Source of the DNA: Pseudomonadota bacterium
GTDB taxonomy: Bacteria; Babelota; Babeliae; Babelales; CAIQNR01
Direction of reading: 5' to 3'
Assembly: GCA_027487215.1 (NCBI GenBank)
Contig: JAIYDZ010000006.1
Coordinates: 275,892-339,891, forward strand
DNA length: 64,000 nt
Position numbers and translations under genes: made by a program. Position 1 is the first letter of the stretch, and every line of letters starts with the position of its first letter. The notes beneath the pieces were generated by a model that ran no database searches, had not been told where the DNA came from, and saw only the letters and a program-made list of their open reading frames with translations. Below are positions 4,970-62,346 of the stretch, piece after piece.

Positions 4970-5362
4970 TCATTTTGTTTTTAATTTAGAATTCATTTCT
5001 TTACTGCATCGAAGTGAATTTTTTTTACACGCAGTTTTAATAAGGTTCTGCACATTAAAATCACTATAATCCCAAGCAGTAAGACCAAAAGTATTTTGTT
5101 TAGTCAAATCAATGTGAATTGAAGGACATTCAAGAAGAGTTTTTATAATGACATGATTTTTTGCTTGAGCTGCATATTCTAAAGCAGTCCAAAAATAAAA
5201 ACCGTATGTTTTATTTACATCTATCCGCTTACAAAGAGTTTTTACTACGTTAGCATTACCGTTTCTGACCGCATCAATAAAATTAAACCACTCATCTGTT
5301 TGACTTTGGGCCGAGAATGTACCCACTAAGCCAAATATAAGTATTATTCTTTTGAAATTCAT
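4970..5362 (-). CDS. Secreted ankyrin-repeat protein
   Basis: ATG at 5362 is preceded by GGGAGG. Signal peptide MNFKRIILIFGLVGTFSAQSQ. ANK-like blocks: AVRNGNANVVKTLCKRIDVNK and TALEYAAQAKNHVIIKTLLE. Confidence 0.7.
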   Translation of the reverse strand: MNFKRIILIFGLVGTFSAQSQTDEWFNFIDAVRNGNANVVKTLCKRIDVNKTYGFYFWTALEYAAQAKNHVIIKTLLECPSIHIDLTKQNTFGLTAWDYSDFNVQNLIKTACKKNSLRCSKEMNSKLKTK

Positions 5363-5597
5363 AACCACAACCTCCCTTTGATATAGTTCTACTCTACACC
5401 AAAAGGGATCTCCAGATGAATATTTACAAATAAGAGAGCTTAAAAAATATCCACACAAGCCTATGTTTATTTATGGCCCATGAGCTTACGCTTTACAAAG
5501 CTATAGCAATTACCGGCGCTCTTGCCATTAAATGATGTAAGTGATATTTTTAAACACTGTCTATTTCATTATTTTATCATACAATGAGAAGGTTATT

Positions 5598-6376: not shown

Positions 6377-7093
6377 TTAGGCTAACGACTGAAGCATCCC
6401 CACCATCACCACAGCTGCCTGTTGAGCTCGCAAAACTGTTGGAGTTAATCGAATTAATTGAGCACTCTTTTCTTTAATCAGTAGCTGTTCTTTTTCAGAA
6501 AAATCCGCCTCAGGACCTACTAAAACAGCAATCTGAGAAAGTGGTACGTGTTTATAAGGTTGCCCTTCAACATCTGCACTTATCAAAGGTATGGTAAGAG
6601 AAGTAACCGCTTGAAAAAGTCCAATTGGTTCTTTAATGTTTGGAATTTTAAAATGTTTTGATTGTTCTGCAGCGGCAATAATGATTCGTTCAAGACGCTC
6701 TTTTTCACGTGCGCCATTCCATTTGCGCTGCATTTTGTCTGTGAGCACTAACTGAATTTCAGACACTCCACACTCTGTCAAACCATATACCGCTTCTTCT
6801 AATGCTTCCCGTTTTAAAACCGGTAAAAGTACAGTAATGGCAAGCGTATGCTGTGCATGAGATTGCAAAGTTTCAAGCGTGCCTTGCAGCTCCTTCTTAC
6901 TAAACTGCAGACAGACAAAACGGGCCGACTTTTTTTGATCAAATAAAAGAATCGACTGGCCTTTTTCCACACGCAAAACATGTGAAATTCTATGAACTAG
7001 GTCAGGGTCTGTAATTATAAAATTACCAGCGTTGCATCCAGAAAGAGGAAAAAATATCGCAAACTCATGACGATTTCGGCTGTGGATAATCAT
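6377..7093 (-). CDS. rsmE: 16S rRNA (uracil1498-N3)-methyltransferase
   Basis: HRISHVLRVEKGQSILLFD and VGPEADFSEKE (the RsmE IGPEGGFS-like motif). The start is ambiguous between 7093 and 7120. Confidence 0.8.
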   Translation of the reverse strand: MIIHSRNRHEFAIFFPLSGCNAGNFIITDPDLVHRISHVLRVEKGQSILLFDQKKSARFVCLQFSKKELQGTLETLQSHAQHTLAITVLLPVLKREALEEAVYGLTECGVSEIQLVLTDKMQRKWNGAREKERLERIIIAAAEQSKHFKIPNIKEPIGLFQAVTSLTIPLISADVEGQPYKHVPLSQIAVLVGPEADFSEKEQLLIKEKSAQLIRLTPTVLRAQQAAVVMVGMLQSLA

Positions 7094-7469
7094 GCAAATT
7101 CCTTTGTGAATAACCTGCATAAATAAGTGCTACTTTAATATAAAAAACAGTTTTTTCTGGAACTACCTTAAAACAGAAATGCTTTATGAGACGCCCACCA
7201 ATATGCGCAGTTCCAATAACTGATGAAAACCATTCATAAAAAGCTGAATGGTGTGTATGATCCATGTCGCGTTGCTCAGAAGCAACTAAGTCGAGAAATT
7301 GTTCCCCTTCTAAATCATCCCAAGAAAATTCACCTGACTGCTCAGAGCCTGAATTATAGTACTGATCGGCATTAGAACTATTCTGCTGAGTACAGAGCTC
7401 ACTTGGAAAACTAGATACTAATACTATAAGTAAAACTAAAACTGCTTTCTGTACGAACTCTTTTTTCAT
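7065..7469 (-). CDS. Hypothetical secreted protein
   Basis: Signal-like N-terminus MKKEFVQKAVLVLLIVLVSSFPS. No domain recognised. The 3' end overlaps the rsmE start. Confidence 0.4.
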   Translation of the reverse strand: MKKEFVQKAVLVLLIVLVSSFPSELCTQQNSSNADQYYNSGSEQSGEFSWDDLEGEQFLDLVASEQRDMDHTHHSAFYEWFSSVIGTAHIGGRLIKHFCFKVVPEKTVFYIKVALIYAGYSQRNLHDYPQPKSS

Positions 7470-11211: not shown

Positions 11212-11420
11212 ATCGCAAAACCTTATAATAACGCGGTTACCAATTGGAAACGCAGCTTAAAACTGCGTTATACAAGCCCACAACCGCTTTTTGAGAAACT
11301 TGTATTTAGAAAACCATGAAAGAAATTGTAACAGAATATCAAAAAAAATCGAGCTTTACCCATTACCACTTGTTTGATAGCTATAAAACATTTAATAATA
11401 AGCTCAGAGAGAGGTTTTTA

Positions 11421-11450
11421 TTGCAACCAGACCTCTCAGTTCTTTACACT
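11421..11450 (+). promoter_or_regulatory. Putative sigma70-type promoter of the ankyrin run
   Basis: TTGCAA (11421-26), 18-nt spacer, TACACT (11445-50), then ATTAAATGGAAC (11454-65). Same architecture upstream of 13934, 53056(-) and 63388. Confidence 0.4.
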
Positions 11451-11498
11451 GATATTAAATGGAACAAATAAGGTAAAAAAGTTTGGATGGAGGTTATT

Positions 11499-12017
11499 AT
11501 GAATAAATTACACGTATTTTTCTTATTAAGTCTTGTTACTACTCAGGCCGTCGCAGAGACAGTTCTCATGAAAGCTGTTACCGATTGCCATAAAGAGCGT
11601 AACAGCCTCGCATCACTAAATCAATTAACCGTTGTTTTAGGGGGAGACTCTAGATTTGACGAGTCCGACGACGGTATGACTCCTCTTTATTATGCTGTTA
11701 TGACAAGGAATGAAGAGGTTCTTGGACTATTACTTAATAGAGGGAAAGGAGATGTTAACTATAGATTAAATAGTGATGATGAATCTATACCCACCTACAC
11801 AGCATTAATGAAAGCAGTAGAAATAGGATCTGAATTAATGGTTGCAATGCTTTTAAATAAAGGTGCAAATCCGCACGTAATCTCTTATGCCAGTGTAGTA
11901 GGCAATAATGATGATAGTGAAGAGGTTGCACAAACAACTCCACTTGAATGGGCCCGCGCAAAAGGTGATAGACCTCAGATTGTAAGACTGCTTGAATCAG
12001 TTAAAGTTGCGGCATAA
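11499..12017 (+). CDS. Secreted ankyrin-repeat protein
   Basis: GGAGG lies 5 nt before ATG 11499. Signal peptide MNKLHVFFLLSLVTTQAVA. ANK blocks: DGMTPLYYAVMTRNEEVLGLLLNRG and TALMKAVEIGSELMVAMLLNKGANP. Confidence 0.8.
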   Translation: MNKLHVFFLLSLVTTQAVAETVLMKAVTDCHKERNSLASLNQLTVVLGGDSRFDESDDGMTPLYYAVMTRNEEVLGLLLNRGKGDVNYRLNSDDESIPTYTALMKAVEIGSELMVAMLLNKGANPHVISYASVVGNNDDSEEVAQTTPLEWARAKGDRPQIVRLLESVKVAA

Positions 12018-12056: not shown

Positions 12057-13694
12057 ATGAATAAAAAACAACTCTTAGCGTTTTTATTTTTGACAAACTT
12101 AACTCAACAAATCTTTGCAAGTGACTATAACAACCTTTTAAACGCAGTACACAACAACCTTAAAGACGAAGTAGAATTATTACTCAATAATAACACAAAT
12201 AACAATATTCATTTCACTAAAACGGAACTGGGTCATGCCCTTACTGAAGCTCTCAGGGAAAAAAATCAAGCTATAGCAAGAATTCTTCTTTCTTATGATC
12301 CTGAAGTAAATATATTTAATGAATACCAAGCAACACCTTTATTATATGCTGCTAGAAATGATTACGATGAGGTTGTAAAAGATTTAATTGCAAGAAAAGC
12401 ACAAGTTGATGCAGAAACTACAGATAAACAGACAGCTTTAATAGAAGCAGCTCAGTTTAATAGTCTGAAAAGCGTTAAGGCTCTTCTTGAAGCTGGAGCC
12501 AACGTTAACGCACAATCTCAAGACAAAATGACTGCTTTAATGTTTGCTGCAAACAATGGTAATGCAGAAATGGTTGAGATGCTTCTTAAAAATGCTGCTG
12601 ATCGTAATATAAAAAATAATTTAGGTAAAACAGCATTAGATTACGCAAAAAAAGAATCAGTAAGAATTTTGCTGCAAACAGCTTTTAGCGCTCAACTTTC
12701 AACAGCTATAAAAAATCACAAAGAAGATGAAGTAGAATTATTACTTAAAACTAGCACAAACAATAATACTTATTTCACTAAAACAGAACTTGGTCATGCT
12801 CTTACCGAAGCTCTCATGAGAGAAAATCAAGCTATAGCAAGAATTCTTCTTTCTTATGATCCTGAAGTAAATATATTTAATGAATACCAAGCAACACCGT
12901 TATTATATGCTGCTAGAAATGGTTACGATGAGGTTGTAAGAGATTTAATTGAAAGAAAAGCACAAGTTGATGTAGAAACTACAGATAAACAGACACCTTT
13001 AATAAAAGCAGTTGACTTTAATCGTTTTGAAAGTGTTAAAATTCTTCTTGAAGCTGGAGCCAATGTTAACGCACAATCTCAAGATAGAATGACCGCTTTA
13101 ATGTTTGCTGCAAACAATGGTAATGCAGAAATGGTTGAGATGCTTCTTAAAAACGGCGCGGATAGTACTATAAAAGATAATTTAGGCAAAACAGCACTAG
13201 ACTATGCTAAAAATGAATCAGTCAAATTTTTGCTTAAAACAGATCTGAGCACTCAACTTTCAACAGCTATAAAAAATCACAAAGAAAATAGAGTTGAATT
13301 ATTACTTACAAGCGGCGCTGATGTTAATTTTAAAACCGAAGCAATAGAACCGGTTATTATTACTGCACTTTATGAACAAAACAAAGCAATTATTAAAATA
13401 ATTCTTTCGTACAACCCTCAAGCTAACGTCGCTAATCAAAATGGCACAACACCATTAATGTTTGCTGCTATTGCTGGCTATGACTATATGATAGAGGATC
13501 TAGTTAAAAATGGGGCACAAATTAACGCACAAGACCAAAAAGGAAGAACTGCTTTAATGATTGCCGCAGATAATGATCATCTAATAACCGTTAAAGCTCT
13601 TCTTGATAACGGCGCAGATAAGACACTCAAAGACCGCAACCAAAAAACAGCTTTTAATTATGCTAAAGATAACGAAATTAAAAAACTCCTTTAA
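12057..13694 (+). CDS. Secreted ankyrin-repeat protein (545 aa) built from a triplicated 187-aa module
   Basis: Signal peptide MNKKQLLAFLFLTNLTQQIFA. More than 10 ANK consensus blocks, e.g. TALMFAANNGNAEMVEMLLKNGAD and TPLLYAARNGYDEVVRDLI. Confidence 0.85.
   Translation: MNKKQLLAFLFLTNLTQQIFASDYNNLLNAVHNNLKDEVELLLNNNTNNNIHFTKTELGHALTEALREKNQAIARILLSYDPEVNIFNEYQATPLLYAARNDYDEVVKDLIARKAQVDAETTDKQTALIEAAQFNSLKSVKALLEAGANVNAQSQDKMTALMFAANNGNAEMVEMLLKNAADRNIKNNLGKTALDYAKKESVRILLQTAFSAQLSTAIKNHKEDEVELLLKTSTNNNTYFTKTELGHALTEALMRENQAIARILLSYDPEVNIFNEYQATPLLYAARNGYDEVVRDLIERKAQVDVETTDKQTPLIKAVDFNRFESVKILLEAGANVNAQSQDRMTALMFAANNGNAEMVEMLLKNGADSTIKDNLGKTALDYAKNESVKFLLKTDLSTQLSTAIKNHKENRVELLLTSGADVNFKTEAIEPVIITALYEQNKAIIKIILSYNPQANVANQNGTTPLMFAAIAGYDYMIEDLVKNGAQINAQDQKGRTALMIAADNDHLITVKALLDNGADKTLKDRNQKTAFNYAKDNEIKKLL
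12168..13289. repeat. Intragenic tandem duplication, 561-bp unit x2, plus a diverged third copy at 13290-13691
   Basis: GAAGTAGAATTATTACT recurs at 12168 and 12729. The diverged third-copy counterpart (AGAGTTGAATTATTACT) starts at 13290, giving a 561-bp period (187 codons). One identical run of ~75 nt: AATCAAGCTATAGCAAGAATTCTTCTTTCTTATGATCCTGAAGTAAATATATTTAATGAATACCAAGCAACACC. Confidence 0.9.
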
Positions 13695-13772: not shown

Positions 13773-13854
13773 GTTGAGAAAGATTTTCTTAACGGTATAC
13801 TTAAAAACCCCTACAAGCAAAAACTCTCAAAATAAGCTCACAGTCAGGTTTTTA

Positions 13855-13884
13855 TTGCTACGACCAGTACGCTTTATATATAAT
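13855..13884 (+). promoter_or_regulatory. Putative sigma70-type promoter
   Basis: TTGCTA (13855-60), 18-nt spacer, TATAAT (13879-84), then ATTAAATGGATC (13888-99). Preceded by AGGTTTTTA, as at 11411. Confidence 0.45.
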
Positions 13885-13933: not shown

Positions 13934-14560
13934 ATGACTACAAAAAAATTTTTCGCCCTTATTTTTCTTACCACCCTTACTCAATCGGTCTTTGCAGGGC
14001 CTAATGAAAACCTTTTAAAAGCTATACAAGAGCAGGATTTTAAAAAAGCAGAACAAGCTCTCAATGAGGAAGCTGATGTCAACTATACCTATCAGAACGG
14101 ATACTCTCCTTTACTACAAGCTACAGAAAATAAAAATACTCCTATAGCATCATTACTCCTTAAAAGAGGAGCAACCGTAGACTTTCAAACTCGCTTGGGA
14201 AGTACTTCTTTAATGTTTGCCGCTTCAAATAATGATCTTAGAACAGCAACTTTGCTTATTAATTACAAGGCTAATGTTTTACTCAGACAAAGAGATACCA
14301 CCAATTTTAAAGGTAAAATAATCAAAGGCGAGACCGCTCTGGAAATTGCTAAAAGAAAAGCACACCTCTATATGGATACTAAGGGTGAAGCTATAGTAGA
14401 TCCAGAAAACTTTACAGACAATGAAATTTTGCAAAAATCACTTGAAATTGCAGAGCAAGAGCAACAGAAAAAAATCTCTGTAGCAACAGAAATAAAAGAT
14501 TCTAGGCATGATTCAGCAATTGATCTGTTTCAAGAAGGACAGGCTGCTCAGAATGAATAA
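13934..14560 (+). CDS. Secreted ankyrin-repeat protein
   Basis: GGAGGTTATTATG start context. Signal peptide MTTKKFFALIFLTTLTQSVFA. ANK blocks: SPLLQATENKNTPIASLLLKRGA and TSLMFAASNNDLRTATLLINYKAN. Confidence 0.8.
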   Translation: MTTKKFFALIFLTTLTQSVFAGPNENLLKAIQEQDFKKAEQALNEEADVNYTYQNGYSPLLQATENKNTPIASLLLKRGATVDFQTRLGSTSLMFAASNNDLRTATLLINYKANVLLRQRDTTNFKGKIIKGETALEIAKRKAHLYMDTKGEAIVDPENFTDNEILQKSLEIAEQEQQKKISVATEIKDSRHDSAIDLFQEGQAAQNE

Positions 14561-14583
14561 TTGAGTAAAAATAGGGGATGGTT

Positions 14584-15264
14584 ATGAAGCTAAAAAACAT
14601 GATTATTGTAAGTGTACTTCTCGTGCAAAGTAGTTATTTATTACAAGCAAATTATAATACAGACATCACACAAGAAAATGATATGAATACAGATCTGCAA
14701 GAGATCAATAATGATGCTACTATCAGTTATGAAGCAAGCAAAGCACTGTGGAATGCATTACAAGAAAATGACACCGCTGCGGCTCAACAAGCAATTAATG
14801 ATGGTGCTGATATCGATATTTCTAATGAAGACGGATTTACTGCTTTGATGTTTGCAGCCGGTCAAAAAAATCTCGCTATCGTGCAGGAACTCCTTGAAAA
14901 AGGGGCTGATACTACTGCCCGCGATAAATATAATAAAACAGTATTACTGCAGATGTCTGAAAGAGGCATAGAAGATATTAACAAAGCACTTTTACAAAAA
15001 GATGCTAACGGCAAACCTGCATGTAACCCTAATGAAGCGGATCAATTTGGCAAAACTCCTTTAATGCACGCGGCACAAAGAAGCTATACTCCTCTGGTCA
15101 TAATGCTTATAGAGGCAGGAGCAGATACCTTAGCAATAGATAGTATCGGCCGCTCAGCTCTTTTTTATGCACGAGAAGCCCGTAACGCAGGAATTGTTGA
15201 TCTGCTCAGCAAAAACGAAGAATTACGCCACCATGACTCAAGCCAAAACCAGCTTGAAGCATAG
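14584..15264 (+). CDS. Secreted ankyrin-repeat protein
   Basis: AGGGG lies 6 nt before ATG 14584. Hydrophobic N-terminus MKLKNMIIVSVLLVQSSYLLQA. ANK blocks: TALMFAAGQKNLAIVQELLEKGAD and TPLMHAAQRSYTPLVIMLIEAGAD. Confidence 0.8.
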   Translation: MKLKNMIIVSVLLVQSSYLLQANYNTDITQENDMNTDLQEINNDATISYEASKALWNALQENDTAAAQQAINDGADIDISNEDGFTALMFAAGQKNLAIVQELLEKGADTTARDKYNKTVLLQMSERGIEDINKALLQKDANGKPACNPNEADQFGKTPLMHAAQRSYTPLVIMLIEAGADTLAIDSIGRSALFYAREARNAGIVDLLSKNEELRHHDSSQNQLEA

Positions 15265-15429
15265 GACCTAGCAAGAAATTTCCATCTTTTGTAATTATGT
15301 TATAATCCTTCATGCGATACTTTACAGACCGTTTTGTAAAACAATCCGTGGGGGATTTTTCTATAAATACCAGTTTAATAAGAATGGTTGTCTTATTATC
15401 ACCTACCAGAAATTAAAAGGCTCTCCTCT

Positions 15430-16062
15430 ATGATCCGAATCTTTTTGATAATCGTGGTATCAACCGCAGTTACTTCTCTTTGTGCCGCAGAAAAAAAATC
15501 TAAATCTATTTCTTTCATTGTTAAAACCGACTCAAAAAAGCTCGATGTAACAAACGTTATAAAAGCATTTGAAAAAGGTAAATTTAGTACTCTTGCATCT
15601 ACAGCACAAAAACATCAGCTACGCGCAGACACGATTTTTAAAAGCCATAATGCACCTGAACGTTTTTGCTCTACCCTCCTTCACGTTGCTACTGCTTTAC
15701 CCACCAGCTCTGGCCTTCAGAAAATCTTAGAGGCAAAAATTCCATACAATATAAACATCACAGATAGTTGGGGAAAAACACCTCTGCATCTAGCAATTGA
15801 GAATGGTAATGAAAAAGCAGTCAGTCTTTTACTTGCTTATGGAGCAAATATAACGGTGCAAGATAAAGATAAAGAAACAGCTCTCACCTTGGCTCAAAAA
15901 TCTAGAAACCAGACTATTTTAAAGACGGTTACGACTCATCGAGATAAAGTTGTCGAAACATTGCTAGAAACTCTCAAAAATGATCCCTCGCAACAAGCTC
16001 TTTATAAGAAATGCAAACATGCGGTAAGTCAGTGGTATGAAAACAATAATCCCCGGCAATGA
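15430..16062 (+). CDS. Secreted/anchored ankyrin-repeat protein
   Basis: ATG 15430 (MIRIFLIIVVSTAVTSLCAA) is preferred over the TTG at 15388. ANK block TPLHLAIENGNEKAVSLLLAYGANITVQDKDKETALTLA. Confidence 0.7.
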   Translation: MIRIFLIIVVSTAVTSLCAAEKKSKSISFIVKTDSKKLDVTNVIKAFEKGKFSTLASTAQKHQLRADTIFKSHNAPERFCSTLLHVATALPTSSGLQKILEAKIPYNINITDSWGKTPLHLAIENGNEKAVSLLLAYGANITVQDKDKETALTLAQKSRNQTILKTVTTHRDKVVETLLETLKNDPSQQALYKKCKHAVSQWYENNNPRQ

Positions 16063-37555: not shown

Positions 37556-38626
37556 ATGAAAAAAAATCTTTCACTTACGCTTCTAGGCGGACTTTTTTGC
37601 ACAACTTACATTTTAAGCATTTTCTCAATGGAGCACGACACTCATGGACGATATGGAGCCCACTCATTAACACCCTCAAGAAACGCTTCCCGAAGAAACC
37701 CACATTCAGAAAGACAAGATGAAAGAGACAACCCAAGAGAGCGCGAAAGACGATCACAAATTAATGAACCACGAGAAAGACGTCATCCTCGTCGCACTTT
37801 GGGATCTGGCAACCATCGACGCGATCAGGCAATTTCATCAAATACTTTCAGACCACGTTACGTTTTTACCAGAACTACTGTAGAAAAAGTCGATGCACCA
37901 ATGATAGATCAATCAGTTGTCCAAGAAGATAAATCAGTAGAAGTTACTTCAGAAAATTTTAGCCAAATACTTTATATAGCTGTCGTAAAAAATGACTATA
38001 AAAAAATTCAAACAGTTCTTTCTTCTTACCAGGGAGAAGAATTTGATCCAAACCAATTTGCTGAAAAAAATGAAACTCCTTTGCATAGAGCAGTCAGAGA
38101 TCAAAGATTAGAAATAGTTAAAGTACTGTGCGCTGACCCAAGAATTAAAATTAATACCCCTGACGATAAAGGTGAAACTGCTTTATTTAAAACAATAACA
38201 CCAGAGATAATAGAGCATCTTATTTTTAATGGAGCTGATCCTCGTCATAAAAATGAACGTGGATACAGTCCTCTTGATCAGGCACGAAAGCTATCACGTG
38301 AAGATGTCTTAATATCTCTTCAAGTAAAAATTATTAAAGAAAAAGCACAATTTATTAAACAGCAAGAGGAAGAACGTCTCCAAAGAATTCAGAGCAGTGC
38401 AGTAGAGGTTAAAAGTACTGAGGACACAGATAATCCTGTATGTTCAATCTGCTTTGAATCTGAAGTCGTCCTTGCAAGCGCTAAAGATACAACCGACATT
38501 ACCGGGTCTTTTGTTAACTCCTTTACTTGTACCCACCAGTATCATGAAAATTGTATTAAATCTCTTATTAAATTGGGATCAAAACGTTGCCCTCTTTGTC
38601 GAAGCTGTCTTAAAATATTGCTCTAA
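37556..38626 (+). CDS. Ankyrin-repeat protein with C-terminal RING-H2 finger (E3 ubiquitin-ligase-like)
   Basis: Hydrophobic N-terminus and an Arg/Glu-rich linker. ANK blocks: TPLHRAVRDQRLEIVKVLC and GETALFKTITPEIIEHLIFNGADP. C-terminus reads C-x2-C-x25-C-x-H-x2-H-x2-C-x11-C-x2-C (CSIC...CTHQYHENC...CPLC, nt 38441-38599). Confidence 0.75.
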   Translation: MKKNLSLTLLGGLFCTTYILSIFSMEHDTHGRYGAHSLTPSRNASRRNPHSERQDERDNPRERERRSQINEPRERRHPRRTLGSGNHRRDQAISSNTFRPRYVFTRTTVEKVDAPMIDQSVVQEDKSVEVTSENFSQILYIAVVKNDYKKIQTVLSSYQGEEFDPNQFAEKNETPLHRAVRDQRLEIVKVLCADPRIKINTPDDKGETALFKTITPEIIEHLIFNGADPRHKNERGYSPLDQARKLSREDVLISLQVKIIKEKAQFIKQQEEERLQRIQSSAVEVKSTEDTDNPVCSICFESEVVLASAKDTTDITGSFVNSFTCTHQYHENCIKSLIKLGSKRCPLCRSCLKILL

Positions 38627-40781: not shown

Positions 40782-41474
40782 TTAGTCTCTTCTTTTGCCA
40801 AATAAACGGAGCAAGTGAATGAAGAGATTAATGAAATCAAGATACAATGTTAGTGCACCCATCAATGCAACTTTATCACGATCTGACTGGTCAAGCATCG
40901 GCGCATGAGCCATATACTTTATTTTTTGTACATCATATGCTGTCAAAATTGTAAACAATGCAACTGCAAACAATGAAATGTAATAATCTGCTACAGGGCT
41001 ATTAAACCACATATTAACAAACATAGAAATTACAACTCCAAACAAACCCATTACTAGATAATTTTCAAGTGCTGACAGGTCTGCCTTGGTGAAATATCCA
41101 TAAAGCGCCATGCTTAAAAATGTTCCTGCGGTAATGGCAAATGCCAAGTAAATTGATTCTATCGTATAAAAATGAAGGTATACCGAAAAGGTAATACCCA
41201 AAACTGCTGCATAGGTTAAAAACGAAACAAGCGCAGTGGAGTAGTTCATCGTTGCAATACGCCAGGTTAAATAAGTAACCAAACCAATTTGCAAAAGAGC
41301 CAAACCAAAAAATAAAATTGGAGAGCTTACAACTACTTTAAATACTGCTGGTGTTGAGGCTACCAAGTAGGCAACTCCCGCAGTTGTAGCTAATGCTACT
41401 GACATCCAGCCGTATACCTTGTACATAAAATTTCTGACTGCATCGCTCGTGAATGTGTATTCTCGTTCAAACAT
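40782..41474 (-). CDS. BAX inhibitor-1 / YccA family membrane protein
   Basis: FMYKVYGWMSVALATTAG N-terminus, 7 TM spans, C-terminal YLDFINLFIHLLRLFG. Confidence 0.85.
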   Translation of the reverse strand: MFEREYTFTSDAVRNFMYKVYGWMSVALATTAGVAYLVASTPAVFKVVVSSPILFFGLALLQIGLVTYLTWRIATMNYSTALVSFLTYAAVLGITFSVYLHFYTIESIYLAFAITAGTFLSMALYGYFTKADLSALENYLVMGLFGVVISMFVNMWFNSPVADYYISLFAVALFTILTAYDVQKIKYMAHAPMLDQSDRDKVALMGALTLYLDFINLFIHLLRLFGKRRD

Positions 41475-54930: not shown

Positions 54931-56618
54931 ACAGTTCATCTCACAAACTTAGAACTGCTCTGGTGTTTCTTCTCTTTTTTGTCTGCTTTAGTGGCGCTGT
55001 TGTTAATCTGTTTATTTTACAAATAACCAAACATGATTTTTTTGTTGACCTGGGAAATAAACAGTATAACGTAATGGTAACAACACCCGCTCCACGCGCA
55101 GTTATCCTTGATAGAAATGGACATCCACTGGCGCTTAATCATGACAGTATTGCTGCATTTATATTGCCTAAAACCCTCAAAGATCCAGTCGGGTTAAAAA
55201 AATTTTTACAAAAACATTTTCCAAGCGCAGTTGCTCGTCTTAAAAAAAATACTGCCAACCATTTTGTGTACATCAAACGAAAACTAACAAACGAAGAACA
55301 AAAACTTATTACTGACAGCGGCCTTGAAGATATTCATCTTCTTGCTGAACCCAGTCGGTTTTATCCAAGTCCCGCAACAGCAACGATAACTGGTATTACT
55401 AATATAGATAACCAAGGACTCTTTGGCATTGAGCTTCAGTACAATCAAAGACTTTCAGGAACCCCAACCACCAGCATGCTTGAACGCGATGCGCGATCAG
55501 GACATTTTCATTTTTCACACAAAACAATGAAACAAGGTGATGAAGGAAAACCGGTTCGCCTCACCATTGACGGGACCTTACAATTTTTTGTCCAAGAAGA
55601 ACTTTCAGCTCAAGCAGCAAAATTCAAAACTCCTGACGGCGCTGCAATCATTATCGATCCTACCACTGGTGATATTCTTGCAATGGCTACCATTCCTACT
55701 TTTAATCCTCTAGACACACGCGATATTGATTTGGCCACCACTAAAAACAGTGCTGTCACTGAAAGTTATGAATTTGGTTCTGCTATCAAATCATTTGCAG
55801 CTCTTGCAGCACTTGAAGAGGGAGTGGTGACTCCTGACGAAATGATTGATTGTGAAGGGACAAAAACAACCATCGTTGAAGGTCGTCGTATTAATACGGT
55901 CGAAGCACAAGGAATTGTTCCCTTTGCAGACGTTATTGCCCGCTCTAATAATATTGGAATTGCAAAGGTTGCCAAACGAATGGGCCCTGCATTATATAAA
56001 CATTATAAAAAACTGGGATTTGGTACCAAAACGGGAATTGCTTTCCCTGGAGAACAGGCAGGCTTTGTAAACCCTCCTGAACGTTGGTCAAAACAATCCA
56101 TTATTTCATTATCATACGGGTACGAACTACGCACTACCTTGTTGCGACTTACCACGGCGTTTGGAGTATTTGCTACCAATGGTCACTTGATTACCCCTCG
56201 CCTTGTACTTGAACCGGAAGAATATACTAAACCACCAGAAAAAATATTTTCTGATCAAAGCATTGCCCAAATGCGCGCTATTCTTGAAAGAACAACTTCA
56301 AGCGCAGGAAGTGCCCGACGAGCATCAACAAAAGGATACATCACGCTGGGTAAAACAAGTACGGCAAACCTACTGATTAATGGACAATACGATCAGACAA
56401 AAAACCTTTATGGATTTGTCGGAATCATAGAAAAAGGTCATTATAAGAGACTTATAGGACTCTTTTTAAAAGAATCACCCTATCACGATTTGTATGCAGC
56501 AACTGTGGCTGCGCCGTTGTTTAAAAAAATTGCAGAAAAAATGCTTATTCATGACCATGTGTTAACAGGAGAAGACGATGCTGATTCCAGCAACAGTACC
56601 GCCCCACAAGCGAGATGA
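54927..56618 (+). CDS. ftsI: Penicillin-binding protein (class B transpeptidase, FtsI/PBP3-like)
   Basis: N-terminal TM span. Motifs SAIK (SxxK), SNN (SxN) and KTS in GKTSTA (a KTG variant). 563 aa. Confidence 0.85.
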   Translation: MNSSSHKLRTALVFLLFFVCFSGAVVNLFILQITKHDFFVDLGNKQYNVMVTTPAPRAVILDRNGHPLALNHDSIAAFILPKTLKDPVGLKKFLQKHFPSAVARLKKNTANHFVYIKRKLTNEEQKLITDSGLEDIHLLAEPSRFYPSPATATITGITNIDNQGLFGIELQYNQRLSGTPTTSMLERDARSGHFHFSHKTMKQGDEGKPVRLTIDGTLQFFVQEELSAQAAKFKTPDGAAIIIDPTTGDILAMATIPTFNPLDTRDIDLATTKNSAVTESYEFGSAIKSFAALAALEEGVVTPDEMIDCEGTKTTIVEGRRINTVEAQGIVPFADVIARSNNIGIAKVAKRMGPALYKHYKKLGFGTKTGIAFPGEQAGFVNPPERWSKQSIISLSYGYELRTTLLRLTTAFGVFATNGHLITPRLVLEPEEYTKPPEKIFSDQSIAQMRAILERTTSSAGSARRASTKGYITLGKTSTANLLINGQYDQTKNLYGFVGIIEKGHYKRLIGLFLKESPYHDLYAATVAAPLFKKIAEKMLIHDHVLTGEDDADSSNSTAPQAR

Positions 56619-57441
56619 GTTTCACAATAATTATGCAACACTGACCAAAGACACCTCGAAATTATTACTTTTTGTTGCTGATCAAAAAATGCAAAGTCTT
56701 AACGAAGAATTTTTTGGTCCTGATTTACCAGCAGGAATTAGCGATCCTGAACACATTTTTAAAATTGCCTCACAAAGTAACGTCGGCGGACTTTCTGTCC
56801 ATCTTGGACTCATGAGCCGTTATGGCCAGCAGTATTCAAACATTAACTTTGTCCCTAAACTTGATGGGAAAACAAACTTAACTCCCACCGATCCTTATAG
56901 TCAGCAAATCTGGTCGGTGGCTGATGCAGTTGATGTTGCACGCAATGGCAACATGAAACTTTGTGGTGTTGGTTACACCGTGTATGTTGGTAGTGAATAT
57001 GAACGAGAAATGCTCACTGAAGCTGCAACCACTATTAAAGAAGCGCATGCACACGGACTGGTTACTATTTTATGGATGTATCCACGCGGACACAAAGTAA
57101 AAAACCCTTATGATCCTAATATTATTGCCGGAGTTGCCGGCCTAGGCGCAACATTGGGTGCAGACTTTGTTAAAATTACTGAACCTGACACAGGACCCCA
57201 TGATTTAATATACGCAGTCCAAGCGGCAGGAAACACAAAAGTGCTTGTTGCTGGTGGTCCTGCGCGCAGCCCAGAACAGATGATTAAACGAGTAGAAGCT
57301 CAACTTTCTTATGGAACTGCTGGAGCTGTCATTGGAAGAAATATTTTCCAGCATCCACTTAAAGAAGCAATCACTATTGCAAACAACCTAGCAGAAACTA
57401 TTTATCAACATCTTGATGAAGATAACTTCGTGGGATTGTAA
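56578..57441 (+). CDS. Class I fructose-bisphosphate aldolase (DhnA/FbaB, DeoC/LacD-type)
   Basis: GADFVKI Schiff-base lysine context and a C-terminal GAVIGRNIFQ phosphate-binding block. Overlaps the ftsI end by 41 nt. Confidence 0.6.
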   Translation: MLIPATVPPHKRDEFHNNYATLTKDTSKLLLFVADQKMQSLNEEFFGPDLPAGISDPEHIFKIASQSNVGGLSVHLGLMSRYGQQYSNINFVPKLDGKTNLTPTDPYSQQIWSVADAVDVARNGNMKLCGVGYTVYVGSEYEREMLTEAATTIKEAHAHGLVTILWMYPRGHKVKNPYDPNIIAGVAGLGATLGADFVKITEPDTGPHDLIYAVQAAGNTKVLVAGGPARSPEQMIKRVEAQLSYGTAGAVIGRNIFQHPLKEAITIANNLAETIYQHLDEDNFVGL

Positions 57442-57471
57442 TTCAGTTTTTCTTTCATAAAAATTTTAAAA

Positions 57472-57895
57472 GTCGCTTCCCGCGCAGGGCAAGAGGGAGT
57501 TCTGGTCAACCCCCTCTTAACTCCCGGACCTTTTAATACACGCGACCCGTTTTCGCTTTCAGCTTCCTCGGGCTAACGCAATTTAACGCCGAAAGTCCGA
57601 CGAAGTTTTAACGTAGACGGATGCATTTCGCCCTTATGTGGACTTTTTGTACACGGTCCGTTTTTACCAATTGAAGTGAGTTTGGCTTGTGTCCCTAGCC
57701 CCTGATTGACCTGTCGACTTCTTCATAGTAAGTAATTTAGTAAAATACCTTATTAGCTTAACTTGACGTTGACAAAACCGCGCTGCGGTTCTTCATGTCA
57801 ATTTAAGCGTGTATTAAAAAAAGCCCAGAGTCCAGAGAGGTTGGCCAAAACCTCTTTGGTGCTGCCTGCAAAAGGCCCTACCAATAGGAAGCGTT
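57472..57895. ncRNA. Unclassified structured-RNA candidate (GC-rich, ORF-free island); strand not resolved
   Basis: No ORF of 60 aa or more in any frame, and markedly higher G+C than the flanks. The ends pair: CGCTTCC (57474-80) with GGAAGCG (57887-93). A 13-bp long-range helix joins 57531-43 to 57807-19. Pseudoknot-capable segment at 57491-57525. Nested hairpins at 57756-57808 and 57832-57859. Contains GAAAGTCC at 57591-98. Confidence 0.55.
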
Positions 57896-57954
57896 AAAAG
57901 AACGGAATAACAATACCTTCAATCTGGTACTACAAAATAAAATTTATTAATTTA

Positions 57955-58599
57955 CTAAACTACTTGCGACTCTTTGTGTGGGAGTCTGACACACACAGAC
58001 ATCGATGACTCTGCCTGAGCAACTGATACTCTTACCACCTCATCAGTAAGTCGTGCAAACAGTGCCTTTACTTCTTTTAAAACTTCTTGGCCGTCGTCTG
58101 ATGCGATGGCCATCTGATTTTGATGCATGTTTTCAATCATAGAATTTTTATGTACCTCAGTTACACAACAGACAACTCGTTGTATTTCATACTTTTTAAG
58201 TAACGCAGTCACTCCCTTAAACAAAGGAGTCTCTACAATAATAATCTGAGAGCTATCCTCATGAAAGGCACGCTGGGTTAACAAACTTTGCCACAAGTGT
58301 TTTGAATGGGGAGTATCATAATTTCCTAACTGCTCATCAGCTATCATAATAAATCGACTCTGACTCATTACACTTTTATCAGAACTCATAAATAATTTTT
58401 TATTAAGTACAGATGTTAACATTACTTGTGCATACGGTTCCTGATAAGGCATAACACCACTCTTAATCTTACAAAAACTTTCTGCATCAGATAGCTCACT
58501 GTAGACTACGACTGAAAGTCCTGCTTGTACAAATGACAACCCCCAACAAATTCCTTTGTCAGTTGTACCACCGATAATACACAGATCATACTCAAACAT
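57955..58599 (-). CDS. Truncated, degenerate UDP-glucose/GDP-mannose dehydrogenase-like N-terminal domain
   Basis: YDLCIIGGTTDKGICWGLSFVQAGLSVVVY...GVMPYQEPY...IIIVETPLFKGVT follows the UGDH N-domain pattern, but GxGxxG is broken. The protein stops at 214 aa, so there is no catalytic-Cys domain. Confidence 0.4.
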   Translation of the reverse strand: MFEYDLCIIGGTTDKGICWGLSFVQAGLSVVVYSELSDAESFCKIKSGVMPYQEPYAQVMLTSVLNKKLFMSSDKSVMSQSRFIMIADEQLGNYDTPHSKHLWQSLLTQRAFHEDSSQIIIVETPLFKGVTALLKKYEIQRVVCCVTEVHKNSMIENMHQNQMAIASDDGQEVLKEVKALFARLTDEVVRVSVAQAESSMSVCVRLPHKESQVV

Positions 58600-60345: not shown

Positions 60346-62346
60346 TTGGTCACCATTGACAAAAAGAAGCTATCTTCTAAAATTTTTACTAAAGAATATC
60401 TAATTAAAATCGAGGTTTTATTGAGTTATAAGTCTAAAAGTTCAGCAAATTGTATAGATTTTTATAAAAAATCAGTCGCTTTTATCTCTCACCAATCTAC
60501 TATCAAAATACGTTCAATAGTCACCGGCATAACAGAAAACATACTACATCATCAGGACCAAAAATTTCTCTGCACTAAATTCTCTCCTGACGGAACTTAT
60601 GTAGCGGCAGGATCTGAATGTGGCACTCTCACAGTCTGGAAAAGAGAAACTGGACACCATATAATCAGCCTTAAAGGTCATACAGCGGGTGCAACGGATA
60701 TTAAAATAAGCGCTGATGGTTTACTTCTAGCGTCTACCGCACAGTGGGATAAATCCATAAAAATTTGGAATATTCAAACTGGCCATTGCATTGCTACTTT
60801 TAAGGACTCGTTTCTTATTCAATCAATTGAATTTACAAACAATGACACCTGTATTATTTCTCGGTCAGTCAACGACGTATACAAAACATGGAATATCTCA
60901 ACAGGCGCATTAATAAATATTCTACCCAAAAAATATAAAGATTTGACTCGACGTTTTTATTGCTTAAGTCCAGACAAAAATTTGGTATTGTTTTCTTCTA
61001 GAAAAAACCAATACCGTACTTTCACCGTTTGGGATGTTTTTCAAAACAAAGCAGTTGCTCAACTTGAAAGTCCCTCTCATGGTACTTTTAGTTTTAGCGC
61101 TAATAATCAATACATTATTGGCAAATTCGTAAACGAAATTTCCTTATGGGACACAACCACAGGAAAATTACTCCATACCACAATATCATCAGTTACTACT
61201 CTTTCCTTCGTGTTATTTACAGATAATCATACTATCTTAGAAGTGTCGGACACCGCGATTGTGGTGCGCGATCAATCGCTCCAGACAATAAATTCTTTTG
61301 CTACTCAACGTCAAAGTATGGCAACAGTGGTATACGCGTACATTTTTAATAATGTTGTGGCTTATCTGACTAAACAAAATTGTCTGACTGTTGTAGATAT
61401 CAACACACAAAAAATAATATTTAAAGAAGAAATAGATTACTCGCTAATCCCGTTTGCTCTTTCAAGTAAAAGTGAGATGATCGCCGTTATTAAATATGAC
61501 AACAGTATTTACCTTCACAAAAAGAATGAAGTTAAACCCCTTTTTATGCTCAAAGGCCACACACAAGGAGTAACATCTGTTATCTTTAATAAAAAAGATA
61601 CCCTCCTTCTTTCAACATCTCATGACGCGACTCTTAAATTATGGAATACCTCTACTGGTAAGTGCTTAATGACATTTGAAGGACACACGCAACGCGTGAA
61701 TCACGCACTCTTTACCTCTGATGATAAAATTATTTCCTGCTCAAATGACAACTCCATAAAACTATGGGACGTTGAAACCGGAGAATGTATTGAAACTCTA
61801 CAGGGTCATACTGATTGGGTACGATCGGTATCGGTAAGTTCTGATGGCAAAACTCTTTTATCTGCCTCCTATGACACTACTCTTAAATTATGGGACATCA
61901 AAACCGGACACCTACTTACTACCATTTCTACCACTCAACGAGTAATTCGTGCGCAATTTCATCCTTATAAACAAGAGTTTCTCTCTCTTGGTGAAGATAA
62001 GATAACTACTCTTTGGGACGCACAAACTGGTCAGAAAAAAATAAGTATGGTGCATCCTGATTTTTATTTTCCTGAAAGCAGTGAGAACCTGATTGGATAT
62101 GCATTTTCTACCTACAGTCCTGATGGCAAGTATATTATGACCTTCTTTGACGAGCAGTATAAATATGGAACATGGGGCGCTGCTCTGATTATACGCGATA
62201 GTAACAGCGGCAAAAAAATAAAAACTATGGGGGATCGGTCAGATAACGATCAAATTCCTTGTTTTAATAATAAAAGCTCACTTATTATTCATATTCTTAA
62301 GCACACCTATAAGAACAAACTACAGATCAGAAAATGGAATATATAA
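60346..62346 (+). CDS. WD40-repeat protein (666 aa)
   Basis: Canonical units, e.g. LKGHTAGATDIKISADGLLLASTAQWDKSIKIWNIQTG, LKGHTQGVTSVIFNKKDTLLLSTSHDATLKLWNTSTG and LQGHTDWVRSVSVSSDGKTLLSASYDTTLKLWDIKTG. TTG start, uncertain. Confidence 0.85.
   Translation: MVTIDKKKLSSKIFTKEYLIKIEVLLSYKSKSSANCIDFYKKSVAFISHQSTIKIRSIVTGITENILHHQDQKFLCTKFSPDGTYVAAGSECGTLTVWKRETGHHIISLKGHTAGATDIKISADGLLLASTAQWDKSIKIWNIQTGHCIATFKDSFLIQSIEFTNNDTCIISRSVNDVYKTWNISTGALINILPKKYKDLTRRFYCLSPDKNLVLFSSRKNQYRTFTVWDVFQNKAVAQLESPSHGTFSFSANNQYIIGKFVNEISLWDTTTGKLLHTTISSVTTLSFVLFTDNHTILEVSDTAIVVRDQSLQTINSFATQRQSMATVVYAYIFNNVVAYLTKQNCLTVVDINTQKIIFKEEIDYSLIPFALSSKSEMIAVIKYDNSIYLHKKNEVKPLFMLKGHTQGVTSVIFNKKDTLLLSTSHDATLKLWNTSTGKCLMTFEGHTQRVNHALFTSDDKIISCSNDNSIKLWDVETGECIETLQGHTDWVRSVSVSSDGKTLLSASYDTTLKLWDIKTGHLLTTISTTQRVIRAQFHPYKQEFLSLGEDKITTLWDAQTGQKKISMVHPDFYFPESSENLIGYAFSTYSPDGKYIMTFFDEQYKYGTWGAALIIRDSNSGKKIKTMGDRSDNDQIPCFNNKSSLIIHILKHTYKNKLQIRKWNI

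Follow-up and report, generated by a model that had tools for sequence, protein, structure and literature searches.

A GC-rich, non-coding island between two convergent bacterial genes is probably a MITE-like mobile element

Analysis of a 64,000-nt stretch of genomic DNA (the window) indicates that the GC-rich island at window positions 57474–57893 is probably a MITE-like non-autonomous mobile element and not an RNA gene. The island had been put forward as a large structured RNA, perhaps a divergent RNase P RNA, with a GC-rich foreign insertion as a fallback. It is the fallback that agrees with the inverted repeats at the two ends, a flanking duplication matching at 7/8 positions, the absence of the island from syntenic sites, recurrent assembly breaks and end modules shared with another genome. 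A MITE-like insertion of this kind is an ordinary feature of bacterial genomes.

The island is 420 bp long and has a G+C content of 47.4%, compared with an average of 37.8% across the window; such a G+C content is reached by only 0.2% of 420-nt segments, and the immediate flanks contain 16% and 21% G+C. The earlier count of 33/60 G+C in 57481–57540 was exact. This enrichment is ambiguous, as a structured RNA gene in an AT-rich genome would look alike. The description of the island as ORF-free and placed between convergent genes (an aldolase ORF on the plus strand, 56578–57441, and a 214-aa ORF on the minus strand, 57955–58599) was also correct: no ORF of at least 60 aa lies inside, the longest being 44 aa. 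Concatenated six-frame peptides of the element had no match among 5.8e9 proteins, and a type I toxin or small-peptide module was rejected after reading of the six-frame translation, which contains no convincing small hydrophobic ORF. At 420 bp and without coding capacity, the element is of the size and kind expected of a MITE (under about 600 bp, non-coding). Its features and neighbours are as follows.

56578–57441, plus strand: DeoC/DhnA-family aldolase, outside the element; Pfam PF01791, E 1.3e-35; intact
57466–57473, unstranded: left copy of the candidate target-site duplication, TTAAAAGT; abuts the first inverted-repeat base
57474–57543, plus strand: left terminal inverted-repeat arm, 70 nt; from global alignment to the reverse complement of 57807–57893
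57474–57490, plus strand: terminal box CGCTTCCCGCGCAGGGC; unique in the window, even at 3 mismatches
57491–57518, plus strand: palindrome H1, 11-6-11, AAGAGGGAGTT CTGGTC AACCCCCTCTT; followed by AACTC at 57519–57523
57531–57543, plus strand: inner 13 nt of the left arm, TTTTAATACACGC, perfectly conserved; 100% complementary to 57807–57819
57544–57806, unstranded: central 263-nt segment; no ORF, no detectable homologue, only local hairpins
57807–57893, minus strand: right terminal inverted-repeat arm, 87 nt; mirrors the left arm in degenerate form, with about 18 additional nt
57828–57859, minus strand: palindrome H2 (57832–57859) with GAGTC (57828–57832); mirror of the H1 and ACTC module
57860–57876, plus strand: extra box-like sequence TGCTGCCTGCAAAAGGC within the right arm; a covariance model aligns 57856–57876 to box positions
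57894–57901, unstranded: right copy of the candidate target-site duplication, TTAAAAGA; abuts the repeat
57955–58599, minus strand: 214-aa ORF, outside the element; shares 35% identity across 206 aa with the 221-aa neighbour in locus L010

The two ends of the island form long, imperfect terminal inverted repeats in which 56 of 64 aligned bases are identical (70 vs 87 nt). Global alignment of the arms scored 53.5, against -3.4 ± 6.3 and a maximum of 23.5 in 1000 shuffles, and the core of the alignment scored 34 against 14.1 ± 2.2, so that terminal inverted repeats of the sort that define a MITE are present with scores far above shuffled sequence. Several pairings proposed originally were recovered as parts of these repeats: CGCTTCC (57474–80) with GGAAGCG (57887–93) by direct reading, and the perfect 13-bp helix 57531–43/57807–19 together with the hairpins at 57491–57518 and 57832–57859 by inverted-repeat search. 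Read as its reverse complement, the right arm runs CGCTTCC..AGGGC..AAAGAGG-hairpin-CCTCTCTGGACTC. Each end carries one module, the box CGCTTCCCGCGCAGGGC, a palindrome AGAGG..CCTCT and then ACTC, and two box-like sequences are found in the right arm. A box-free motif, AGAGG-N(8-30)-CCTCT-N(1-4)-ACTC, had just two matches in the window, one per arm and in opposite orientations, against an expectation of 0.01, a result that is partially circular since the motif was designed with both window arms and the related copies described below already known. The weak point of the arms is their length difference of about 18 nt and the fact that their inner end is best conserved, while in terminal inverted repeats it is usually the outer end.

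Directly outside the repeats lie TTAAAAGT and TTAAAAGA, a direct duplication with a 7/8 match. Flanks that agree as well as this are found at a frequency of 6e-4 among window positions and 1.5e-3 among AT-rich ones. The duplication abuts the repeats as a MITE target-site duplication does, with the reservation that it has one mismatch and was noticed post hoc.

The island is lineage-specific. In L010, the nearest syntenic relative (aldolase 78% identical), the two convergent stop codons are about 10 nt apart and the island is absent, and it is also absent downstream of the aldolase in L011 (63% identical). Both loci therefore lack the insertion, as expected of empty sites, in relatives so distant (78% and 63% at the amino acid level) that the exact empty site is not alignable. 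The same comparison bears on the minus-strand neighbour, which had been called a truncated dehydrogenase-like gene: its 221-aa orthologue in L010, which carries PF03721 (UDPG_MGDP_dh_N), aligns with it nearly end to end, and the gene is not truncated.

Public assemblies break at the element in a manner expected of a repeat. Logan contigs from SRR16126834, SRR35819072 and SRR35819081 are 100% identical to the window, with 0 mismatches in about 27 kb fetched. All left contigs stop at 57503, exactly 30 nt into the left end, and all right contigs begin at 57830, 30 nt to the left of 57860; the left break was seen in all three runs, which belong to two accession series. Logan uses k=31, and any 31-mer is present once per accession's contig file (PMC12424806). 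Because Logan 31-mers are unique and the contigs end k-1 nt inside the element, the 30-mers 57474–57503 and 57830–57859 must also be present in another context. On the left, the first copy-specific base, 57473, abuts the first repeat base; on the right, the first base obliged to differ between this copy and the other context or contexts is 57860. The same contig ends would also be expected from a variant sequence diverging at 57504 and 57829. Only these contig ends suggest that several copies may be present in this genome.

Three other explanations of the breaks were rejected on position. An invertible switch between the 13-bp repeats predicts contig ends at 57543/57807 rather than 57503/57830; recombination between the palindromes predicts ends at the two 6-nt spacers, which the observed pair of ends does not match; and presence/absence polymorphism within the samples would stop the contigs at about 57473, not 30 nt inside.

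Searches for further copies were negative within their scope. No second copy was found in the 64-kb window by blastn, window-wide repeat finding or a box search with mismatches, and none in loci L001–L011 by nhmmer. Exact 22–23-mers and paired 13-mers identified no further copy in genome_contigs or metagenome_contigs. In viral_contigs, a 20-mer and a box-plus-palindrome pattern were unmatched, and an 18-mer matched once, in coding DNA, by chance. Blastn of the window element and of one related copy against plasmids and phages detected no copies, and the ORF at 63388, used as a probe for paralogue-bearing regions, had no homologues. The original prediction had allowed that many near-identical genomic copies with target-site duplications would make the island a MITE; the 7/8 duplication, flanking long inverted repeats, fits this picture, and no second copy was seen directly.

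The end module recurs as a multi-copy family in an unrelated Firmicute, Oscillospiraceae bacterium EPI_MAG_00047 (JAVBMI01). Intergenic repeats on five contigs of this one MAG (loci L023, L076, L082, L128 and L132) all begin their end module with the box, identical over 17–22 nt, CGCTTCCCGCGCAGGGC(AAGAG); these loci were retrieved with the window's own 17-mer, which makes the box match partially circular. The copies are 300–540 nt long, non-coding, situated between housekeeping genes and 75–90% identical to one another. They are mosaics of boxes, palindromes and inverted segments, some with inverted-repeat ends of about 130 nt and tandem boxes, and in L023 and L076 the module stands in mirror image at both ends. 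Their palindrome is kept through compensatory changes in 6/18 pairs; in their centres covariation is essentially lacking (covariation term -0.52). In the window and the MAG copies alike, the stretch before the box is AT-rich, and one MAG subtype terminates in a terminator-like hairpin followed by a T run.

The box, palindrome and ACTC that define the EPI_MAG_00047 end module are all found in the window element. A covariance model built from the MAG copies alone placed the left arm as its top window match (25.5 bits, E 2e-4); a match including 57856–57876 scored 14.7 bits (E 0.12), and the right arm by itself, 57827–57858 on the minus strand, was weak at 11.3 bits (E 0.87). Of 133 loci, the five from the MAG were the only ones with the box-free motif. 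A profile HMM of the MAG module that used sequence alone missed the window arms, palindromic hits having collapsed the profile, and outside the end module neither blastn nor alignment detected similarity between the window element and the MAG copies, so that no centre is shared. The two also differ in that the MAG palindrome stems are 18 bp and the window stems 11 bp, in that MAG copies have 2–3 boxes repeated in tandem every 36 nt, plus additional GC-rich hairpins on the outside, and in their hosts, a 50% G+C Firmicute and a 38% G+C bacterium with many ankyrin and WD40 proteins. A literature search for the box sequence returned nothing, and the MAG repeat family is, as far as we could find, undescribed.

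Under the MITE reading, the 420-bp element would have inserted into a former intergenic spacer of about 85 nt between the convergent genes. Its ends would act as cis sites for a transposase encoded elsewhere, which may have made a staggered 8-bp cut at TTAAAAGT; repair of this cut would have produced the flanking duplication. Transposition would then have taken place in trans, presumably by a DDE-type mechanism. No transposase was identified by Pfam among 30 window ORFs, among the five ORFs around the island or adjoining the MAG copies.

Known bacterial MITEs include the Correia elements of Neisseria, the Rickettsia palindromic elements, and the RUP and BOX-type elements of streptococci. Like them, the element is small, non-coding and intergenic, with terminal inverted repeats and a short direct duplication, would yield a long hairpin on transcription, and interrupts contigs in short-k assemblies. 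It differs in the unusual length and composite build of its repeats (box, palindrome, ACTC and inner 13-mer), whose inner end is best conserved, and no named MITE or IS was found to resemble it in sequence. No MITEs in Dependentiae turned up in a literature search. Several transposase-binding repeats per transposon end are known from the IR/DR of Tc1/Sleeping Beauty and from the multiple terminal sites of IS21, Mu and Tn7. By analogy only, the element resembles these in its long ends and repeated boxes (two in the right arm, up to three in tandem in the MAG); there is no sequence relationship, and the element termini are not TG..CA.

The palindromes at both ends raise another reading, namely a dispersed palindromic repeat (REP/REPIN/BIME) or small recombination module, in which an HUH (RAYT-like) enzyme or site-specific recombinase, and not a DDE transposase, would act on the palindromes as DNA hairpins or dimer-binding sites. 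We consider this unlikely. Like REPINs, the element has two inverted imperfect palindromes that together would make a long hairpin, and it is extragenic; the 11-6-11 palindrome is near-perfect at both ends, the compensatory changes (6/18 pairs) preserve the MAG palindrome, the MAG relatives are arranged between housekeeping genes as mosaics resembling BIMEs, and no transposase was found among the window ORFs scanned. Set against this, REP/REPIN and IS200/IS605-type elements make no flanking duplication, and here one is present at 7/8. The box and ACTC beside the palindromes are inverted as well, which indicates a true terminal inverted repeat. The spacer between the inverted palindromes is 313 nt, and a 420-bp element with a 263-nt centre is far bigger than a REPIN. 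Neither a conserved GTAG-type head nor, among the scanned window ORFs, a RAYT-like or recombinase gene was seen. An IS200/IS605-derived PATE was rejected on similar grounds: the ends are true inverted repeats, non-palindromic motifs being inverted as well, and a duplication flanks them.

The original headline, a gene for a novel structured ncRNA, about 400 nt in size and with a long helix closing its ends, would make the island perhaps one of several copies, with a 5' domain (box and hairpin) that may be conserved across phyla. This is now quite unlikely. The island is GC-rich in an AT-rich genome and folds very stably on both strands: the fold of 57445–57954 was better than 100/100 shuffles, with z scores of -4.49 on the plus and -4.90 on the minus strand. 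The interior, 57544–57806, when folded alone, gave z scores of -1.74 (plus) and -0.89 (minus), neither of them significant. The claimed self-complementarity is thus real for the island as a whole and confined mostly to the terminal arms. The strong predicted RNA structure arises because the two arms are complementary, and fold stability does not point to an RNA gene; read-through transcripts across the element, if any, would be predicted to form a long hairpin. Further points for an RNA gene come from the MAG family, with its compensatory changes in the module hairpin, the AT-rich sequence before the box that it has in common with the window, and the terminator-like hairpin and T run ending one subtype. 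Its centres, in contrast, neither covary nor are homologous to the window centre. A module in mirror image at both ends is what is expected of transposon ends and not of an RNA 5' domain, and the flanking duplication and the empty syntenic sites of relatives likewise argue against an RNA gene.

Searches for known RNAs and for transcription signals point the same way. Rfam 15 gave 0 matches at the gathering score over the whole window and 0 at E<=10 with lax filters over 57300–58100, and Rfam did not match the related MAG elements either. The RNase P, tmRNA and large RNA families whose search had been recommended were all negative, including OLE, GOLLD, ROOL, HEARO, raiA and other known large or ornate RNAs, none of whose models matched the window or the MAG elements. 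ARAGORN identified no tRNA or tmRNA gene in the window, in agreement with Rfam and with the earlier statement that the island is not tmRNA-like. Scans for promoters and terminators detected no excess of sites and none in the right place, and no T run follows the island hairpins; an independent transcription unit was accordingly rejected.

RNase P RNA (RF00010/RF00011) is of a similar size class, and the island shares with it a high G+C content within an AT-rich genome, a P1-like pairing of the ends and one GAAAGUCC octamer. Of GAAAGTCC, on which the comparison had drawn, the window has 5 copies where 1.9 would be expected, the other four being in coding DNA; its frequency is about at chance level, and it is not an RNase P signal. 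The candidate P4 strands, 57593–600 and 57682–88, are separated by only about 80 nt and enclose no S-domain, no covariance model matched at E<=10, and the island is absent from the relatives' syntenic site; RNase P was rejected. With Rfam negative, the interior not significantly structured, promoter and terminator sites not in excess and the octamer near chance, the headline reading as a structured RNA and possibly a divergent RNase P is not supported. Two of its local structures need correction. In the H-type pseudoknot, the loops joining S1a/S2a and S1b/S2b would be of zero length, which is sterically implausible, and AACTC is better explained by the conserved end module; the 12-bp stem is complementary at 11/12 positions, with a C.T mismatch at 57762/57802, and shares 2 nt with the 13-bp helix.

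A broader proposal is that the window element and the Firmicute-MAG repeats together form an undescribed cross-phylum class of small mobile modules that are not ordinary DDE MITEs. Their conserved ends, an invariant 17-nt box beside a covarying palindrome, would be recognised by some enzyme as folded DNA or RNA hairpins, or would express a structured RNA for their own mobility. We regard this as very unlikely.

Highly improbable is a static, single-copy, lineage-specific spacer (a foreign-DNA remnant or a bidirectional 3' structure) whose repeats have no meaning for mobility and whose breaks reflect local heterogeneity: the single copy seen directly, the convergent-gene setting in which a two-way terminator would be useful, and contig ends that formally fit a variant diverging at 57504 and 57829 speak for it, and the lack of any terminator-like site, the left contig end lying exactly k-1 nt past the first repeat base in three runs of two accession series, the same end module in multiple copies in another genome, and the duplication abutting the repeat speak against it.

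Reading the island as a MITE-like element removes a false lead, as the candidate large structured RNA or divergent RNase P is best explained by the pairing of transposon ends, and it flags mobile DNA in an uncultivated bacterium that is probably host-associated, since its genome encodes many ankyrin, WD40 and RING proteins. The presence of the module in an unrelated Firmicute, exact over 17–22 nt, suggests either a widely distributed putative transposase or horizontal spread. The MITE reading also accounts for an assembly break that recurs in three public sequencing runs. The same assembly is interrupted elsewhere too, inside an ankyrin gene with internal repeats and where a WD40-type ORF starts, and a Logan walk beyond the window reached another, unrelated contig end.

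The GC-rich island (57474-57893, 420 bp) lies in a 513-nt spacer that separates two convergent stop codons and contains no ORF of at least 60 aa. Most helices of the original prediction were found at their positions; these and the other features of the locus are as follows.

56578-57441, plus strand: aldolase ORF, DeoC/DhnA family; its stop is the left border of the spacer
57466-73: left flanking repeat TTAAAAGT, directly outside the inverted repeat
57474-80 and 57887-93: end pairing CGCTTCC/GGAAGCG, confirmed
57491-57518 and 57832-57859: two hairpins, confirmed
57531-43 and 57807-19: perfect 13-mer pair, confirmed
57894-901: right flanking repeat TTAAAAGA, directly outside the inverted repeat
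57955-58599, minus strand: 214-aa ORF, convergent with the aldolase; its stop is the right border of the spacer

The island has a G+C content of 47.4% versus a window mean of 37.8%, a level reached by only 0.2% of 420-nt windows, and its immediate flanks have 16% and 21%. Folded as single-stranded RNA, 57445-57954 beat 100 of 100 dinucleotide shuffles (z -4.49 on the plus strand, -4.90 on the minus). With fold, composition and most of the helices confirmed, the original observation is real and did not arise by chance. The interior (57544-57806) folded alone gave no significant signal (z -1.74 plus, -0.89 minus); the fold signal of the island resides in its ends.

Those ends form a long inverted repeat. 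The left arm (57474-57543) matches the reverse complement of the right arm (57807-57893) at 56 of 64 aligned positions, with a global score of 53.5 versus -3.4 +/- 6.3 (maximum 23.5) for 1000 shuffles; an ungapped-like core (57491-57543/57807-57856) scores 34 versus 14.1 +/- 2.2. The right arm is longer by about 18 nt. Counted on this alignment, arm mismatches yield four G.U pairs on the minus strand and one on the plus, a difference too small to show the transcribed strand. The two flanking repeats agree at 7 of 8 bases, and a flanking match of at least 7/8 occurs at 6e-4 of window positions and 1.5e-3 of AT-rich positions. Long terminal inverted repeats with a short flanking direct duplication are a hallmark of transposable elements. 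The island is probably a MITE-type non-autonomous element, an ordinary kind of feature of which it is a new member. A transposase encoded elsewhere would recognise the composite ends and mobilise the element in trans, perhaps by DDE-type chemistry, with a staggered 8-bp cut at TTAAAAGT that would be duplicated upon insertion. No transposase was present among the scanned window ORFs.

Comparison with relatives indicates that the island was inserted. Among the relatives reached, the nearest with conserved synteny is a JGI metagenome contig (L010; aldolase 78% identical), which has the same gene order as the window: BamA, a hypothetical ORF, a small ORF, PBP, aldolase, a convergent short dehydrogenase-like ORF and a ~480-aa ORF. 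Its two convergent stops are just about 10 nt apart. A second relative (L011; aldolase 63% identical) also lacks the island. The 214-aa ORF, originally described as a truncated dehydrogenase-like gene, aligns nearly end to end with its 221-aa L010 orthologue and was therefore not truncated by the island. As listed, the aldolase ORF shares 41 nt (56578-56618) with the end of the PBP (FtsI-like) ORF. Its L010 orthologue, as called, has 36 aa fewer, and hence the true start in the window probably lies further downstream. The closest named relative of the aldolase is from Candidatus Dependentiae (45% identity).

We also compared the window with Logan contigs from SRR16126834, SRR35819072 and SRR35819081, which were 100% identical over all fetched stretches (0 mismatches over about 27 kb). 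All aldolase-bearing contigs end at 57503 and all contigs bearing the 214-aa ORF end at 57830. Logan assembles unitigs and contigs at k=31, and no 31-mer is repeated within an accession (PMC12424806); a contig of unique DNA therefore halts k-1 = 30 nt inside multi-context sequence, so that the first bases specific to this copy are 57473 and 57860. The former is the base just before the inverted repeat, and the latter is where the additional stretch of the right arm begins. The agreement of the break points with the repeat terminus is indirect evidence for a multi-copy element, and the source genome may thus hold several copies, although a variant diverging at 57504 and 57829 gives the same ends; no second copy from this genome was directly seen in the window or the contig collections scanned. 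Three models predict break points elsewhere and were rejected: inversion at the 13-mers, recombination of the two palindromes with each other, and presence or absence of the insertion within the samples.

The remaining breaks of the same assembly across this ~65 kb lie inside an ankyrin gene, which holds 561-nt repeats, and where a WD40-type ORF begins. The ankyrin-repeat ORF (12057-13694) carries a 561-nt tandem duplication of 88% identity (12135-12434/12696-12995), and two SRR16126834 contigs, positioned by their length, end inside it, at about 12291 and 13257. The ORF starting at 63388 (63388-64000) apparently carries a signal peptide, and a search of 5.8e9 proteins with its N-terminal 204 aa gave no homologue at E<=1e-5. 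Nevertheless, a Logan contig breaks inside this ORF, at 63465, which implies that the sample has a near-identical 30-mer at another place. A Logan contig terminates at L012:13440-13530, about 1.5 kb to the left of the window start and about 100 nt past an H+-pyrophosphatase gene; the final 30 nt of this contig, TTTTATTTAAAATGACCTGAATACCCCACG, are unrelated to the island ends and possibly mark the edge of another repeat family.

Exact-word scans with interior and subterminal words of the island found no match. The terminal 17-mer (the box) gave at least 120 matching stretches, nearly all chance matches in GC-rich genomes; among the matches listed, five contigs of one genome stood apart, 'Oscillospiraceae bacterium EPI_MAG_00047' (JAVBMI01; L023, L076, L082, L128 and L132). 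This genome has ~50% G+C and T-box, lysine and purine riboswitches. Its repeat copies are:

L023:1589-2222
L076:1045-1603 and 6546-7225
L082:1-483
L128:2460-3344 and 6628-6782
L132:4691-5243

The family is non-coding, 300-540 nt long and 75-90% identical among copies. Housekeeping genes flank the copies, and no transposase was seen nearby. In each module, headed by a 17-22-mer, the parts follow one another as they do in the window: box CGCTTCCCGCGCAGGGC, AAGAG(A)GGG...palindrome...CCCTCTCTT, then GACTCTCC. In L023 and L076 it is mirrored at both ends within ~130-nt inverted repeats, and copies carry up to three tandem boxes with a 36-nt period (boxes of 18 nt, palindrome of 18 bp). Of the 18 palindrome pairs, 6 carry compensatory changes that preserve the pairing; covariation is essentially absent from the centres, which are unrelated to that of the island. 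The family is mosaic, and its centres fall into at least two subtypes, one of which has a terminator-like hairpin and T run at its end; Rfam found no family match for these elements, which appear undescribed.

A covariance model built from nine MAG modules only ranked the left arm first in the window (25.5 bits, E about 2e-4), gave the right arm a weak score (11.3 bits, E 0.87), and also matched box-like sequence at 57856-57876. The box-free motif AGAGG-N(8-30)-CCTCT-N(1-4)-ACTC, designed after both sets had been seen, has two window matches, the two arms on opposite strands (0.01 expected), and matches only the five MAG loci among 133 fetched. Even with the MAG loci retrieved by the window's own 17-mer, conserved ends with unrelated centres are the pattern expected of cis-acting transposon ends. 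The remaining curiosity is a base-perfect terminal box common to the island and a repeat family of an unrelated phylum.

A palindromic element of the REP/REPIN or recombinase type is unlikely, as the island has a flanking duplication and its non-palindromic motifs are truly inverted. Rather improbable is a novel structured RNA gene: the interior is unstructured, expression signals are lacking, the module is mirrored at both ends and relatives do not have the island. Promoter- and terminator-like sites around it were not enriched and none was positioned for a discrete transcript. Nor is the island a known RNA. Rfam 15 at gathering thresholds matched nothing in the entire window, and permissive filters (E<=10, 57300-58100) gave just two meaningless hairpin matches and no RNase P, tmRNA or large RNA. 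ARAGORN found no tRNA or tmRNA gene in the window. The window has five copies of the RNase P-like core GAAAGTCC versus 1.9 expected, with the four outside the island in coding DNA, and the proposed pseudoknot would have sterically implausible zero-length loops. The island is most likely not a new RNA class. A static single-copy spacer is very improbable.

The sole promoter-like site of the island region (57463-57492, minus strand) is a hybrid, not above chance expectation, with its -35 TTGCCC inside the left end of the element and its -10 TAAAAT in the flank; it is directed outward, antisense to the aldolase 3' end. Elsewhere, an 80-nt direct repeat of 83% identity (50860-50939 and 53222-53301), with a hairpin (AATGACTCC..GGAGTCATT), flanks an ankyrin-family ORF (51074-53056), one copy per side. 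A conserved motif, AATAAGCTCA.AG..AGGTTTTTATTGC (11385-11427 and 13819-13861, plus; 53130-53158, minus), precedes three ORFs by about 60-75 nt and is probably a promoter or 5' leader common to them; ankyrin-repeat genes account for at least two of the three. The motif includes an AGAGG..CCTCT hairpin (11410-11436) without box or ACTC. Eukaryote-like proteins are abundant in the window, including ankyrin repeats, an ankyrin plus RING-finger protein, WD40 beta-propellers and a Bax-inhibitor-1 homologue:

37556-38626, 40782-41474, 60346-62346 and 63388-64000: eukaryote-like ORFs
4970-5458, 11487-12017 and 13934-16062: ankyrin ORFs, examples among many

Such content points to a bacterium living in association with a eukaryotic host.
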